Positions 661 to 9,748 of a DNA stretch of 9,748 bases are shown one piece after another (position 1 is the first letter of the stretch; each line of letters starts with the position of its first letter). The notes below the pieces were generated by a model. It was not told the origin of the DNA, made no database searches, and was given only the letters and a program-made list of their open reading frames with translations. The position numbers and the translations under genes were made by a program. Source of the DNA: a virus (lineage: Duplodnaviria > Heunggongvirae > Uroviricota > Caudoviricetes); IMG/VR virus record IMGVR_UViG_2671180603_000017, positions 1 through 9,748 of that record, one strand, 5' to 3'.

Positions 661-690
661 ACCACCGGAGGTAGCAATCTCATGGGTGGT
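661..690 (-). promoter_or_regulatory. Leader hairpin (stem CUCACCACC/GGUGGUGAG) whose loop contains site B (GAUUGCUACC), a same-sense mimic of the small-RNA loop
   Basis: 9-bp stem; the loop sequence is identical to the sRNA loop core and therefore complementary to site A; covaries in copy 2. Confidence 0.45.
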
Positions 691-700
691 GAGACGTACA

Positions 701-714
701 GGGTTGCTACAACC
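701..714 (-). promoter_or_regulatory. Leader target site A (mRNA sense GGUUGUAGCAACCC), complementary to the small-RNA loop; sits just downstream of in-frame GUG/AUG at 723-718
   Basis: Ten base pairs with one bulged nucleotide against sRNA GGG(A)UUGCUAC; covaries with the sRNA loop in copy 2. Confidence 0.5.
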
Positions 715-793
715 GGTCATCACGGAACCCGGCCAGTCTTGCGACTGCCCCGCACGCCCCACCATAATTTGAATGTGGCTGTGCATTACGCAT

Positions 794-816
794 AAAAAAA
801 CCGCCTGAGCGCGGTT
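794..816 (-). terminator. Intrinsic terminator: 6-bp stem AACCGC/GCGGUU, 6-nt loop, U7 tract
   Basis: Hairpin followed by a U-run on the minus strand; the plus strand has no T-run after the stem, so it is unidirectional. The stem is short, so termination may be partial. Confidence 0.45.
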
Positions 817-870
817 ATGCGCCGTGAATGACTTCGGGGTAGCAATCCCGGCACCCGTTTTATGAGGTGC
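794..870 (-). ncRNA. Putative ~77-nt antisense-type small RNA (c4-like by analogy), copy 1; second hairpin CGGG-AUUGCUAC-CCCG
   Basis: Strong promoter immediately upstream, no AUG inside, two hairpins (GCACC/GGUGC and CGGG/CCCG), ending in a stem (AACCGC/GCGGUU) plus U7 terminator. The loop is complementary to leader site 701-714. Confidence 0.5.
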
Positions 871-876
871 AGGTGC

Positions 877-905
877 ACTATAATTCCACCCGTTCTGGTT
901 TTCAA
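877..905 (-). promoter_or_regulatory. Sigma70-type promoter for the small RNA and possibly read-through Rha mRNA: -35 TTGAAA (905-900), 17-bp spacer, -10 TATAGT (882-877)
   Basis: Near-consensus hexamers at optimal spacing, read directly on the minus strand; identical in copy 2. Confidence 0.5.
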
Positions 906-1044
906 TAGCTACATTCAACATTTTCTCTTTCCTTTCATCACCGAAGTGAACTTTGTTGATGCGGTGAATGCGGCTCAGCGCACGCGGCACAGTTAAAAAG
1001 CGATTAGTTCCCCCGTATCGGGTGGTTATGGGTTTCCCTGTATA

Positions 1045-1610
1045 GCTGAACCAGACGTTCGCTCCTACAGCACCAAATCAGGTCTGGGTGGCGGACCTGA
1101 CGTATGTTGCCACACAGGAGGGATGGTTGTACCTCGCTGGCATCAAAGATGTTTATACGTGCGAAATTGTCGGCTACGCCATGGGAGAGCGCATGACAAA
1201 AGAGCTGACAGGTAAAGCCCTGTTTATGGCGCTCAGGAGCCAGCGCCCACCTGCCGGGCTAATCCACCACTCTGATCGAGGTTCACAGTACTGCGCATAC
1301 GATTACCGGGTCATACAGGAGCAGTCTGGTCTGAAAACATCAATGTCGCGTAAAGGTAACTGTTACGACAACGCTCCGATGGAAAGCTTCTGGGGAACGC
1401 TGAAAAATGAGAGCCTGAGCCACTATCGTTTTAATAACCGGGATGAAGCCATCTCAGTAATACGGGAATACATTGAGATTTTCTACAATCGTCAGCGTTG
1501 TCACTCTCGTCTGGGGAATATCTCCCCGGCAGCCTTCAGGGAAAAATATCATCAGATGGCTGCTTAAAAAAAGAACAAATGGTAGTGTCCGCTATTGCCA
1601 GTACACCTCA
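1045..1610 (+). mobile_element. IS3-family (IS600-like) element, 3' fragment of 566 bp ending at the right terminus ...GCCAGTACACCTCA
   Basis: Near-exact reverse-complement copy of 2823-3388; contains the transposase OrfB C-terminal coding region; the terminus ends in CA as in the IS3 family. Confidence 0.8.
1046..1567 (+). pseudogene. IS600-like transposase OrfB, C-terminal fragment (5'-truncated, no start codon)
   Basis: Track ORF 1088..1567 has a C-terminal sequence identical to that of ORF 2866..3966; the reading frame is open back to the fragment boundary. Confidence 0.8.
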
Positions 1611-2154
1611 AAAGTAATTGTTCCACAGTCATATTTTTAATTGCGCCCCGGTTAACAAGAGTCCATCCCTGTTTTTCCAGATAAAACCGGAAAGTCTCCA
1701 GGGGACAGACCAGTGCGCCATCAGGAACGGTTTCGGTGAATTCGACATTGCCGAATTTGTCGAAGTGAACAACCAGAGTGCGACCATCACCCGGAATCAT
1801 CTTGTCAGCAGGTGGGGTGTTATTCTGGCGCAGTTCGGCCTCCATGCGGTCGAACTCAGCAATGTATGCCTCTTTGAATGCGGCGGCTTTTTTGCCCGTG
1901 AAGCCCATCACCAGGAAAACGAAGCCGTTTTTGGTGATTTGGTACATTGGGAGTTTGCGCCCGGTTGAGTCGGTGTATTCGCTCGACACAAAATTGTGCT
2001 CAGTGAATTTTGCTGAACAGTCCAGATTGCGAATTTTATCCAACACTCGTTCGTGGCGTTTGCCAAAGAACTCGGCGATCGCAACAGAGGTAGTGACAGC
2101 GCGACCATTTTCGATGGTTACGTCAGGGTGAGAAAGGGTAAGGATAGTAGCCAT
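1564..2154 (-). CDS. Rha-family antirepressor-like protein, module copy 2 (196 aa from ATG 2154-2152); divergent N-terminal domain, C-terminal tail and stop codon supplied by the abutting IS600 end
   Basis: Mosaic paralog of 76..627: residues after the Rha domain are identical, the Rha domain is divergent (MATILTLSHPDVTIENGRAVTTSVAIAEFFGKRHERVL...). The last 11 codons (LRCTGNSGHYHLFFF*) read into IS sequence. Confidence 0.6.
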   Translation of the reverse strand: MATILTLSHPDVTIENGRAVTTSVAIAEFFGKRHERVLDKIRNLDCSAKFTEHNFVSSEYTDSTGRKLPMYQITKNGFVFLVMGFTGKKAAAFKEAYIAEFDRMEAELRQNNTPPADKMIPGDGRTLVVHFDKFGNVEFTETVPDGALVCPLETFRFYLEKQGWTLVNRGAIKNMTVEQLLLRCTGNSGHYHLFFF

Positions 2155-2323
2155 GATGGCAGCCTCCGCGATGAATTTGATTAACTCACCACCGAGGTTT
2201 TCCACGACCATAAGGGTGGTGAGACGTACAGGGGTGGAAATACCGGTCATCACGGAACCCGGCCAGCCTTGCGGTTGCCCTGCACGCCCCACCATAATGC
2301 GAATGTGGCTGTGCTTAACGCAT

Positions 2324-2400
2324 AAAAAAACCGCCTGAGCGCGGTTATGCGCCGTGAATGATTTCGGGTTTCCACGCCCGGCACCCGTTTTATGAGGTGC
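2324..2400 (-). ncRNA. Putative small RNA, copy 2; second hairpin CGGG-CGUGGAAA-CCCG
   Basis: Same promoter (-10 at 2412-2407, -35 at 2435-2430) and terminator as copy 1; differs from copy 1 only in the hairpin-2 loop and one adjacent base; loop complementary to leader site 2231-2244 (mRNA sense GGUAUUUCCACCCC). Confidence 0.5.
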
Positions 2401-2406
2401 AGGTGC

Positions 2407-2435
2407 ACTATAATTCCACCCGTTCTGGTTTTCAA
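2407..2435 (-). promoter_or_regulatory. Sigma70-type promoter for small RNA copy 2 (TTGAAA, 17 bp, TATAGT)
   Basis: Sequence identical to the copy 1 promoter. Confidence 0.5.
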
Positions 2436-2474
2436 TAGCTACATTCAACATTTTCTCTCACCTTTCATCACCGA

Positions 2475-2628: not shown

Positions 2629-2865
2629 TTAAAAAGGGCGGACATCAGCCAGCAATTAAACCGATGCCGCCAACTGGTACTTCACACAGCAATGTCGTTA
2701 TTTACAACCGGAGGCGCACTCCCACCATTTAAATTTAACAGACAAGACCGACTCTTTATGGATACCGGAAATGCGCCTTCGTGTTGTGCCCGGTTTTATT
2801 TCACCACCTCCGGGCTTTGGTATGAGGTGTACTGGCAATAGCGGACACTACCATTTGTTCTTTTT

Positions 2866-4271
<1,406 letters not shown>

Positions 4272-4272
4272 G

Positions 4273-4575
4273 GTTCAGCAGATTTGGCGCAACTGGCAGA
4301 TTGTGGTTCGAGTTCGTAGTCGCTCTGAACTTGCGTTTCTGCTTACAGCGTAGCCTTAGCTCCTTACGAAGACGTGCCAGTCGGTCACGACCAACGATGA
4401 TGCCATTCTCTGCCAGCTCCGTCTGGAGCCGCCGGGTTCCATATGTTTCGCGAGTGCGGATATGTGCCACCTTAATCTCCAGTTTTAGCCGCTCATCACT
4501 TTGTTTTCTGTCTGAGGGTTCATGCTGTACCCAGTTGTAATAACCGCTCCTGGATACACCAAATACCTGACACAT
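4273..4575 (-). pseudogene. IS600-like OrfB N-terminal portion, interrupted at 4272 by the IS911-like terminus
   Basis: Track ORF 4198..4575 matches IS600-like OrfB (MCQVFGVSRSGYYNW...NLPVAPNLLN) and then diverges at the junction. Confidence 0.7.
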
Positions 4576-4610
4576 CGCTTCAATGGGAAATTGTTGTCGC
4601 CATTGTTCGA

Positions 4611-4913
4611 TTAACGCGTATTTTTCAGCGACTCCTGTGCAAAATACGCTGTTGCTTTTTTTAATATATCTCGCTCAAGGCGAGCTTCATTTAACGCCTT
4701 ACGCAGTTGCAGAATTTCAGATTCCAGTTCAGCCACCGTGCGGGAACCAGGAGTACCGAGCCCTTTTCTGGCGGCGGTAACCCATTGTCCTAAAGTGCCT
4801 TCAGGAAGAGATAATCGGGAAGCGCCTTCACTGATCGAAAGTTGATTTTCAGGAACCGTTCTGACAGCTTCGGCTTTGAACTCTTTAGAGTAACGTTGGG
4901 TTTTTCTGCTCAT
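4611..4913 (-). CDS. IS600-like OrfA (transposase N-terminal HTH and leucine-zipper protein, 100 aa)
   Basis: Track ORF MSRKTQRYSKEFKAEAVRTV...ILKKATAYFAQESLKNTR, typical IS3-family OrfA; followed by an overlapping orfB in the -1 frame. Confidence 0.8.
   Translation of the reverse strand: MSRKTQRYSKEFKAEAVRTVPENQLSISEGASRLSLPEGTLGQWVTAARKGLGTPGSRTVAELESEILQLRKALNEARLERDILKKATAYFAQESLKNTR
4655..4662 (-). promoter_or_regulatory. Programmed -1 ribosomal frameshift site (A AAA AAA G) joining orfA to orfB
   Basis: A7G run in the orfA frame (UUA AAA AAA GCA). The orfB frame is open from this point down to 4273 (read codon by codon), as in other IS3-family OrfAB fusions. Confidence 0.6.
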
Positions 4914-5956: not shown

Positions 5957-6376
5957 TTATTCCGGTGGGGGATTATCTTTAATCCTGCCTCTCAAATATT
6001 TTTCTACATACTCATCGATTTCTTTTAGCCGGACTTCAAATAGCTCAATCATTCGTTGTTGTTCTGAGCCCGGTAGCTGGTTAAACAACTCAAGAAGTTT
6101 TCGTTGGGATTCATTTAACCACAATTCAGAAGATTCCTGTTCTCCAAAGAGGAGCTCAGGAGGAGATATGCCAAGTGCCTTTCCCAATACGACAGCGTCA
6201 TGTACTCCAACATTTCTGCTGCCCGCCTCATAGTTACCTATACGCGATTGCGTCCATCCGCAGATTTCAGCAAGTTTTCCTTGAGATAAACCAAGCTTCT
6301 GCCTGCGCTCTTTAAGACGCATTGCAATTTTGTCATTGAGCCTACTAGCGGCAATTTTTTCGTTTTCTTTTTCCAT
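5957..6376 (-). CDS. Prophage repressor, HTH XRE family (DicA/CI-like), 139 aa
   Basis: HTH motif LGLSQGKLAEICGWTQSRIGNYEAG; a C-terminal segment (QRKLLELFNQLPGSEQQRMIELFE) resembles my recollection of DicA; divergently arranged with a Cro-like gene. Confidence 0.7.
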   Translation of the reverse strand: MEKENEKIAASRLNDKIAMRLKERRQKLGLSQGKLAEICGWTQSRIGNYEAGSRNVGVHDAVVLGKALGISPPELLFGEQESSELWLNESQRKLLELFNQLPGSEQQRMIELFEVRLKEIDEYVEKYLRGRIKDNPPPE

Positions 6377-9112: not shown

Positions 9113-9535
9113 ATGGCGAAACCTTTTACTCCCGAACAGCGGGAAGAACTGAAGACGCGAATTGTGGAACTCGTGCATCAGGACGGTCGGGTCACGATTC
9201 GGCAGTTGTCAGATGAAACAGGTATCAGTCGTGCGTCTGTCGGTCGCTTATGCATAGAACTGGTCGCAAGTGGTGATGTATATAATTCTGGCTACGGCTT
9301 ATTCCCGTCTGAACAGGCTCGCAAGGACTGGCAAAGCGCCCGCAAAAAACTCTCGAGAGTAAAGGTGAGGAAACCGGTTGTTGTTGATCCGGACCTTATC
9401 TGGTCATTACCTGACGGAGAAATACGCCGCTACGACAGGCGCCTGAATATAATCTGTCGCGAGTGCCGGAAGAGCGAAGCTATGCAGCGTGTACTGGCTT
9501 TCTATCAGGGTAATTTTCAGGAGGCGATACTGTGA
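9113..9535 (+). CDS. Hypothetical phage protein with a putative N-terminal winged-HTH (VTIRQLSDETGISRASVGRL), 140 aa
   Basis: AGGAGG Shine-Dalgarno 5 nt before the ATG; C-terminal region duplicated in the next gene. Confidence 0.55.
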   Translation: MAKPFTPEQREELKTRIVELVHQDGRVTIRQLSDETGISRASVGRLCIELVASGDVYNSGYGLFPSEQARKDWQSARKKLSRVKVRKPVVVDPDLIWSLPDGEIRRYDRRLNIICRECRKSEAMQRVLAFYQGNFQEAIL

Positions 9536-9592: not shown

Positions 9593-9748
9593 ATGGAAAT
9601 AAAACACAAAAAGCTATCGAGGGTAAAGGTGAAGAAACCGGTTGTGGTTGATCCTGACCTTATCTGGTCATTACCAGACGGAGAAATACGCCGCTACGAC
9701 AGGCGCCTGAATATAATCTGTCGCGAGTGCCGGAAGAGCGAAGCTATG
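9593..9748 (+). CDS. Partial CDS (3' end outside window), paralog sharing the C-terminal module of the preceding gene (…KLSRVKVKKPVVVDPDLIWSLPDGEIRRYDRRLNIICRECRKSEAM…)
   Basis: ATG 9593 preceded by AAGGAGAGGAG; an in-frame alternative ATG exists at 9536; 9610-9748 is near-identical to 9347-9485. Confidence 0.5.
   Translation, partial: MEIKHKKLSRVKVKKPVVVDPDLIWSLPDGEIRRYDRRLNIICRECRKSEAM

Follow-up and report, generated by a model that had tools for sequence, protein, structure and literature searches.

We have found here that a 9,748-nucleotide stretch of a Caudoviricetes virus record (the window, by which we mean the whole of the DNA that was analysed) contains two copies of a regulatory RNA locus. 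Each copy very probably constitutes a P1 immI-type immunity module, built of IsrK and C4 and lying before a Rha-family antirepressor-like gene; the C4 RNA would repress that gene and IsrK would relieve the repression. The family membership of the RNAs, the anatomy of the module and the covariation of all six of its pairing sites (a1, b1, b', a', a2 and b2) were observed directly. The module is a known kind of element that is recognised by existing models, and the IsrK-C4 system has already been published: Barquist et al. 2013 name "the IsrK-C4 immunity system" (PMC3632133), and Hershko-Shalev et al. 2016 dissected the Gifsy-1 locus (PMC4825925).

The window was scanned with the Rfam covariance models and the scores were read against the curated gathering cut-offs, which are 50 bits for isrK, 45 bits for C4 and 46.7 bits for c4-a1b1. 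The isrK model (RF01394, IsrK Hfq-binding RNA) matches over its whole length (positions 1-77 of 77) with 64.8 bits at 794-870 and 67.7 bits at 2324-2400. The C4 antisense RNA model (RF01695) also matches from end to end (1-87 of 87), with 79.0 bits at 682-769 and 76.3 bits at 2212-2299, and so settles in the affirmative the relation to the described C4 family on which the first-pass annotation of this DNA had withheld judgement. Matches to the c4-a1b1 model (RF03163) remain below the cut-off in the window, with 20.6 bits (831-883) and 25.7 bits (2361-2413), and overlap both IsrK hairpins; judged by sequence, this is the corresponding element, too diverged for the RF03163 model. The leader of phage P1 scores 51 bits with c4-a1b1 and also matches the isrK model over its full length, terminator hairpin and U-run included (35.1 bits, E=5e-6), whilst the P1 C4 scores 68.8 bits with RF01695. 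The double match of the P1 leader implies that IsrK corresponds to the a1-b1 leader of P1, and shows at the level of sequence that the Rfam isrK and c4-a1b1 entries describe one element.

All parts of both modules lie on the minus strand. Copy 1 begins with a sigma-70 promoter motif at 877-905 (-35 TTGAAA at 905-900, a 17-nt spacer and -10 TATAGT at 882-877), which agrees with the consensus at 10 of 12 positions and whose -10 element aligns with the -10 box of the P1c4 promoter of P1. The IsrK small RNA, or a1-b1 leader, is placed at 794-870 by the Rfam match, the predicted fold and a terminator scan. It consists of a first hairpin (870-851), a second hairpin (850-835) with the loop CGGG-AUUGCUAC-CCCG, a linker, and an intrinsic terminator motif (816-799) formed by a 6-bp GC-rich hairpin followed by U7. 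The loop of the second hairpin carries the a1 word, UUGCUAC (839-845), which is complementary to a', and the linker carries b1, GUCAUUCACGG (822-832), which complements the b' loop if one U is left bulged. The a1-b1 segment in the centre of IsrK pairs with the contiguous b'-a' segment downstream, in keeping with the described pairing of IsrK, through its middle, with about 30 nt of RNA further on. IsrK is 77 nt long and free of AUG in both copies (870-794 and 2400-2324).

Downstream of the terminator lies the C4 antisense RNA (682-769), defined by the RF01695 match and by its minimum free energy fold. In this fold an outer helix of 17 bp surrounds two hairpins and a single-stranded segment, and a CCACCC tail forms the 3' end. 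The folds of the two C4 RNAs reproduce the structure of the Rfam model (-44.5 kcal/mol for copy 1 and -40.6 kcal/mol for copy 2), and the fold is predicted to be retained within the 273-nt read-through leader. Its helix is acceptor-stem-like. In P1/P7 and P4, C4-type RNAs are cut from a longer transcript by RNase P, and C4 in the window would be a candidate for such processing. In Salmonella an RNA downstream of IsrK, STnc1160, is reported to be a processed species (PMC4825925). The b' site, CCGUGAUGAC (716-725), forms the loop of the second C4 hairpin, and the a' word, GUAGCAA (704-710), occupies the single-stranded segment. Just 3' of C4 follows the a2 word, UUGCUAC (671-677), which corresponds to the annotated a2 of P1, and then b2, UCAUCGCGGAGG (636-647), which contains the Shine-Dalgarno sequence GGAGG (640-636) of the Rha reading frame, 8 nt before the ATG at 627. 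The helix between b2 and b' comprises 11 bp including two G-U pairs, the exact match being 5 nt. The a' and b' sites of C4 are therefore complementary to a downstream a2 and b2, and b2 coincides with the ribosome-binding site that serves the first gene. That gene (76-627) would encode 183 residues from ATG 627, of which residues 19-103 match the Pfam family Phage_pRha (1e-31). Both Rha reading frames of the window also match PHROG transcription-regulation and anti-repressor families, so that the product is antirepressor-like by family and its activity putative. The neighbourhood also includes a CI-like repressor (5957-6376). The 5' strand of the C4 helix contains an AUG (765-763) whose frame runs without a stop for 138 nt to the Rha ATG and on into the gene.

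Copy 2 repeats this arrangement. Its IsrK promoter (2407-2435) has the same hexamers and spacing as that of copy 1. IsrK (2324-2400), with the hairpin-2 loop CGGG-CGUGGAAA-CCCG, carries a1 as GUGGAAA (2375-2369) and b1 as AUCAUUCACGG (2362-2352); C4 (2212-2299) carries b' at 2255-2246 and a' as UUUCCAC (2240-2234); and a2, GUGGAAA (2199-2205), is followed by b2 with the Shine-Dalgarno sequence, UCAUCGCGGAGG (2163-2174), and by the second Rha-family gene (1564-2154; Phage_pRha, 5.7e-31). Between the -35 box and the ATG the two copies differ in 32 alignment columns, 23 of which fall in the patches that hold a1, a' and a2. The b' loop has the same sequence in both. The 7-nt a words, UUGCUAC and GUGGAAA, differ at four positions, and their partners, GUAGCAA and UUUCCAC, are changed to match. 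In both cases the pairing of a1 with a' is extended, after one bulged base, by GGG:CCC. A back-of-envelope estimate puts the chance that four positions and their bases should match in this way at ~(1/35)(1/81) = 3.5e-4 per site pair. On sequence, then, the two copies are two alleles of a specificity determinant in which b is common and four of the seven a bases differ at all three a sites.

Every sequence feature reported in the first-pass annotation was confirmed. The TTGAAA-17 nt-TATAGT promoter ahead of a roughly 77-nt, AUG-free RNA closed by a hairpin and U7 is present as a set of sequence features in both copies; the GUGAUG at 723-718 shares the reading frame of the Rha ATG at 627; and the four compensatory changes between the IsrK loop and the stretch then called site A (GGUUGUAGCAACCC, 714-701, in copy 1; GGUAUUUCCACCCC, 2244-2231, in copy 2) are real. 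The a2 words (677-671 and 2205-2199), the location of site A within a structured RNA and the b1/b'/b2 set had escaped notice.

The pairing rule extends far beyond the window. Viral contigs were scanned twice with the conserved C4 hairpin as the anchor, which yielded 160 loci, and those with a C4-like outer helix were kept, giving 71 unique modules with 45 a'/b' combinations, 26 a' words and 34 b' loops. A cognate a word of at least 7 nt is found upstream, as a1, in 96% of these modules (2.9% for non-cognate words) and downstream, as a2, likewise in 96% (non-cognate, 2.3%). For cognate b words of at least 7 nt the figures are 62% for b1 and 78% for b2, against about 7% for non-cognate words. 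When words were assigned to modules at random, none of 1000 shuffles reached the observed score for either a or b, and this permutation test rejects chance complementarity as the source of the pairing. The compensatory relationship first noticed between the two copies is accordingly kept across 45 a'/b' combinations, as covariation of loop and target in homologous modules. A third allele, of E. coli type, obeys the same rule (AUUAGCAC / UAGUGCUAACCC / GAUUAGCAC). The b2 site ends in ..GGA in 78% of the modules. A terminator hairpin with a T-run lies between a1 and C4 in 70 of the 71, which makes the short IsrK-type RNA a feature of the whole family. The a1 word was placed in a hairpin loop in 35 of 71 modules, a figure that reflects the crude 7-nt flank fold by which it was obtained. 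The a1 and b1 sites, still described as "putative" in the P1 record, are thus constrained as tightly as a2 and b2, as natural covariation over 26 a words and 34 b loops shows, and this constraint is consistent with IsrK-type leader RNAs acting throughout the family as antagonists matched to their C4.

Pairing energies calculated for short-segment duplexes point to discrimination between the copies. For a' with a1 the two cognate duplexes have energies of -17.0 and -17.2 kcal/mol and the non-cognate ones -8.1 and -9.9 kcal/mol; for a' with a2 the values are -12.8 and -13.7 against -4.4 and -9.0 kcal/mol; and for the joint a1b1 segment with b'a' they are -31.8 and -29.6 against -20.6 and -19.6 kcal/mol. 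Cognate partners are thus favoured by 4-9 kcal/mol when the a word is taken alone and by about 10-11 kcal/mol when a1b1 and b'a' pair jointly. The b' site forms duplexes of -16.0 kcal/mol with b1 and of -22.3 kcal/mol with b2, and since the b' x b2 helix is common to both copies, these may cross-react substantially. RNAcofold of the full-length molecules (IsrK with C4, and C4 with the leader) gave no preference for the cognate partner, with a ddG of 0 to -2.6 kcal/mol over all pairs, and full-length RNAduplex was uninformative, the stems of both structured RNAs being paired along their whole length. The case for discrimination consequently comes from the short-duplex energies and the covariation.

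The mechanism that we favour can be set out as follows. A strong, constitutive-looking promoter would start a transcript that in most instances presumably ends at the intrinsic terminator, yielding the 77-nt IsrK with a1 in the loop of its second hairpin and b1 in the linker. Read-through RNA would continue through C4, whose tRNA-like fold would present a' and b', and then through a2 and b2 into rha; C4 is probably excised from this transcript, as happens in P1 and P4. Pairing of C4 a' and b' with a2 and b2 would block translation of Rha, since the Shine-Dalgarno sequence is part of b2. The same block would strike the mRNA of an incoming phage with the same words, and this would constitute the immunity function. 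IsrK, bearing the same words as the mRNA target, would compete for C4, whether free or as a segment of the long transcript, and lift the block, and would thus be an activator whose specificity is matched to its own C4. It is the processing of C4, the direction of regulation and the extent of discrimination between the copies that we infer here; C4 is likely to be the repressor and IsrK its matched antagonist. This direction is supported by the Salmonella homologue, where IsrK in trans activates the antirepressor, compensatory mutants confirm pairing and STnc1160 is a processed RNA (PMC4825925).

The most serious rival to trans repression by C4 is a switch that operates purely in cis, as described in Salmonella, with no separate trans-acting repressor role for C4. 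Pairing of a1-b1 with b'-a' in the read-through transcript would lock the leader in an inactive structure; Rha would be made only if ribosomes start at the AUG at 765-763, cross a2 and b2 and open the Shine-Dalgarno hairpin; and IsrK acting in trans would free that AUG. The model is backed by mutagenesis of the Gifsy-1 locus (PMC4825925), where co-expressed STnc1160 did not act as a simple repressor and where the authors' account rests on alternative cis structures and on coupling from an upstream reading frame, orf45, rather than on repression in trans by C4 (PMC4825925). Several features of the window agree with it. The reading frame from AUG 765 is open and in frame with the Rha ATG, as is the case for an AUG in C4 in 46 of 63 modules, and the Shine-Dalgarno sequence is predicted to lie in a local hairpin with a CCUCC that adjoins a2. 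However, a mechanism confined to cis leaves unexplained both the covariation of a2 and b2 with a' and b' across the family and the established trans immunity conferred by the c4 of P1 and P7, and the predicted minimum free energy fold of the copy 1 leader retains C4 and leaves a1 unpaired. We consider it possible, though rather doubtful, that the cis switch is the whole explanation. Coupling in cis is more likely a complement to C4 repression: the two models are not exclusive, and a mechanism that mixes trans repression with cis coupling is likely.

The side-by-side placement of two specificities, to which the first-pass annotation drew attention, is literally present, and the surrounding sequence bears on how it arose. 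Self-BLAST identifies a direct repeat between 92-966 and 1613-2496 (91.2% identity) and shows that 1045-1610 is an inverted, 100% identical copy of 3388-2823. The region between the copies (1045-1612, plus strand) is a 3' fragment of IS600, as seen from self-BLAST, from Pfam rve domains and from the IS600 annotation of a related genome. A second IS600 begins at 2823, and its end is the inverted match of 1045-1610. Two IS600 right ends thus flank copy 2 together with the region upstream of it (1613-2822), and the truncated fragment supplies the left one. The homology of the copy 2 Rha to that of copy 1 ends at 1613, and the end of IS600 replaces the last codons of the copy 2 reading frame. None of 40 loci that share the exact C4 hairpin has two modules, and only one module occupies the corresponding place in the closest complete E. 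coli genomes. Those genomes and IS600 point to an IS-rich genome of E. coli or Shigella type, although a scan of genome contigs for the junction upstream of copy 1 (955-994) gave no match. Given the IS600 bracketing and the single modules of the relatives, the tandem is most likely the by-product of an IS-mediated rearrangement and not a designed pair.

Two further readings strike us as improbable but would have consequences of their own. One is that tandem IsrK-C4-rha cassettes are a recurrent, selected architecture. In a distant locus (L058) two cassettes are indeed separated by 656 nt that contain no IS, and they differ in their a words and share their b word; were the tandem selected, it could offer a route to new immunity specificities through duplication and divergence, or provide two separately gated antirepressors. 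The other is that the AUG within C4 yields an extended Rha isoform, in which case opening of the C4 helix would produce an N-terminally extended protein and not mere coupling as in Salmonella.

It is very unlikely that the part of a c4-like antisense repressor is played by the 77-nt RNA, which would then bind site A in the rha leader to stop translation, as was originally proposed. The pairing of its loop with site A and the four compensatory changes are genuine, and the RNA has its own promoter and terminator. Against this, site A is not a leader target: it lies inside a full-length C4 match (79 bits) about 75 nt upstream of the Shine-Dalgarno sequence, its core is the a' word of the C4 RNAs at 682-769 and 2212-2299, and the targets on the mRNA are a2 and b2. 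The 77-nt RNA matches isrK and not C4, and the recurrence of a2 and the pairing of b' with the Shine-Dalgarno sequence would be superfluous if it were the repressor. Furthermore, the homologous IsrK of Salmonella Gifsy-1 raises translation of the antirepressor 139-fold in trans (PMC4825925, Table 1B), which suggests that the proposed direction of regulation should be reversed. What stands of the original proposal is a switch of the P1/P7 c4 type that gates a Rha-family, antirepressor-like gene, with matched base changes such as determine specificity in this family; the assignment of the repressor's part to the 77-nt RNA, which is IsrK, does not.

Least probable of all, and in our view to be rejected, is the notion that the whole stretch is coding, with the reading frames at 76-990 and 1564-2451 specifying Rha with a genuine N-terminal extension of ~120 residues and the RNA motifs being incidental: both long frames are open, PGAP annotates a 280-residue Rha protein over the equivalent region, and translation of the extension gives matches to several PHROG profiles (phrog_995, for instance, at 2e-43), but the extension holds a near-consensus promoter, an intrinsic terminator and two Rfam families above cut-off, the changes between the copies are compensatory as RNA yet alter amino acids, the IsrK promoter is situated downstream of the ATG at 920, the Rha domain of Pfam already begins at residue 19 of the short protein, which has a good GGAGG 8 nt before ATG 627, it is the nucleotide and not the amino-acid sequence that is conserved in this stretch (PMC4825925), and gene calls extended too far would be expected to give just such PHROG matches. 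Gene callers and PHROG profiles routinely translate the IsrK-C4 module as the N-terminus of Rha-like proteins.

It has been published before that IsrK-C4 occurs in lambdoid prophages and is related to the systems of P1, P7, P4 and N15. An Stx2 phage record (LC710661.1) annotates a "C4 antisense RNA" and an "isrK Hfq binding RNA" next to one another at the homologous place. A 2025 review nevertheless lists IsrK and c4 as separate, unlinked entries, so the connection, though published, is not universally appreciated.

The isrK - orf45 (STnc1160) - anrP locus of Gifsy-1 resembles the window in its promoter, its terminated 77-nt IsrK of the same Rfam family, its structured RNA, its antirepressor-like gene and its location in a lambdoid prophage, and in both cases the loop of the second IsrK hairpin pairs with a site ~160 nt into the transcript. 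Compensatory mutations at this locus, G28A/C162U and G31A/C159U, are reported to validate a helix (PMC4825925). By position, spacing and base identity, though not from an alignment, the pairs 28/162 and 31/159 would fit the a1:a' helix; exact mapping of these mutants onto viral-contig modules with the UUGGCGU word left offsets of 1-3 nt. The two loci differ in their a and b words and in the presence of two tandem modules in the window. In Gifsy-1 the stop codon of orf45 overlaps the start of anrP (AUGA), whereas no orf45-type frame with such an overlap occurs in the window, where the frame of AUG 765-763 is fused to Rha. In addition, the published model has no place for the a2 and b2 sites, which covary here.

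The seqA and CI elements of P4 have been described as structural homologues of IsrK and C4 (PMC3632133, PMC4825925). Compared by description, the seqA - CI RNA - seqC arrangement of P4 and the CA RNA of N15 share with the window a processed antisense RNA with complementary sites both upstream and downstream (PMC3632133, PMC4825925). Unlike the covering of a ribosome-binding site that we propose here, CI acts by premature termination of transcription (PMC3632133, PMC4825925).

The immI region of P1 and P7 corresponds to the window feature for feature in its layout, including the site lengths of 7 nt for a and 8 nt for b. The order P51 promoters - a1 b1 - c4 - a2 b2 - icd - ant is reportedly that given by Citron and Schuster in 1990. 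In the P1 record (NC_005856) the features follow one another as c4 promoters, a1 (7 nt), b1 (8 nt), the 77-nt c4, a2 (7 nt), b2 (8 nt) and icd-ant. There are also clear differences. P1 is a plasmid prophage and the element in the window a lambdoid, Rac-like one; the cargo is icd-ant1/2 in P1 and a single Rha-family gene in the window; the P1 promoter has a C1 operator; and a stop codon in frame after 14 codons deprives the c4 of P1 of an orf45-type reading frame. The regulatory segments of P1, P7, D6 and both copies in the window can nonetheless be aligned from the -10 box to the start codon, with a mean column identity of 75%. Between P1 and P7 the a and b words both differ, between P1 and D6 the b words alone, and in each case the changes are compensated at all three sites.

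Copy 2, the second of the two minus-strand IsrK-C4 modules that precede Rha-family genes in the window, is flanked on both sides by IS600 right ends facing inward. The two IS600 segments (1045-1610 and 2823-3388) are inverted and 100% identical, the one on the left being a truncated 3' fragment. The same IS region also contains a 220-nt direct repeat with 99% identity (3375-3594 and 4266-4485) and, at 4198-4913, separate orfA and HTH_21 ORFs; this combination suggests that IS3-family copies have been nested or rearranged here.

There are further repeats in the window. A 55-nt inverted repeat of 92.7% identity (944-998 and 2576-2629) has one arm upstream of the copy 1 promoter and the other further upstream of copy 2, an arrangement resembling, at the sequence level, the outcome of a segment inversion. 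The repeat overlaps a sub-threshold match to STnc100 (29.9 bits, cut-off 47) and adjoins one to DicF (28.6 bits, cut-off 48); the coordinates 2482-2624 and 2636-2686 also belong to this group of features. A 142-nt direct repeat with 95% identity (9343-9484 and 9607-9748) follows the DUF977 gene and closes the window on its right side. Its second copy includes a low-scoring hit to CRISPR-DR57 (21 bits against a cut-off of 39), most likely due to chance.

Comparison of the two modules shows a compensated change of one base pair in the first C4 hairpin (737-745 in copy 1, 2267-2275 in copy 2), from U-A to C-G. The neighboring G-C pair is replaced in copy 2 by an A·C mismatch, marked non-canonical by cmscan.

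Tandem modules are also present in a distant locus, L058, where two complete IsrK-C4 cassettes lie on the minus strand at about 9865-11207, separated by 656 nt without an IS, and each precedes a gene for a 117-residue Rha-domain protein. The a words of these cassettes are unlike (UUGGAAC and UUCGCAG) and the b word is identical in both. The window shows this same pattern of tandem cassettes with differing a words and a common b word. The module in another locus, L017 (IMGVR_UViG_2671180603_000009), is chimeric, combining an a1 word and 5' C4 half of copy 1 type with a' and a2 of copy 2 type. Downstream of the module, an N precedes sequence that is also present at window positions 976-998. The locus looks less like a natural allele with a mismatch than like the collapse of a window-like tandem repeat during assembly.

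Upstream of each Rha gene in the window the reading frame remains open for a further ~100-120 codons (628-990 and 2155-2451, minus strand), spanning C4, IsrK and also the IsrK promoter. In the equivalent region of the related locus L001 (9045-9887) PGAP calls a 280-residue Rha protein, and the translated RNA module matches the N-terminal parts of PHROG profiles 995, 821, 6928, 3960, 29966 and 4908 (best E-value 2e-43). Over-extended gene calls, having entered the protein family profiles, probably account for the long Rha protein and the profile N-termini. Two Rfam families, isrK (RF01394, no clan) and c4-a1b1 (RF03163, clan CL00128), align with a single phage P1 leader (L162, 8218-8312) and also match one common stretch of the window; they appear to be two names under which one homologous element has been modeled.

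An AUG (763-765, minus strand) lies in the outer helix of C4, on its 5' strand. In 46 of 63 related modules this AUG is in frame with the ATG of the downstream gene, the intervening frame being open, and the distance between the two is usually 138 nt, with 132, 141 and 144 nt also found in related modules. The equivalent Salmonella frame, orf45, differs from this open in-frame arrangement in ending in an AUGA overlap (PMC4825925), whilst in P1 the frame from the C4 AUG stops after 14 codons.
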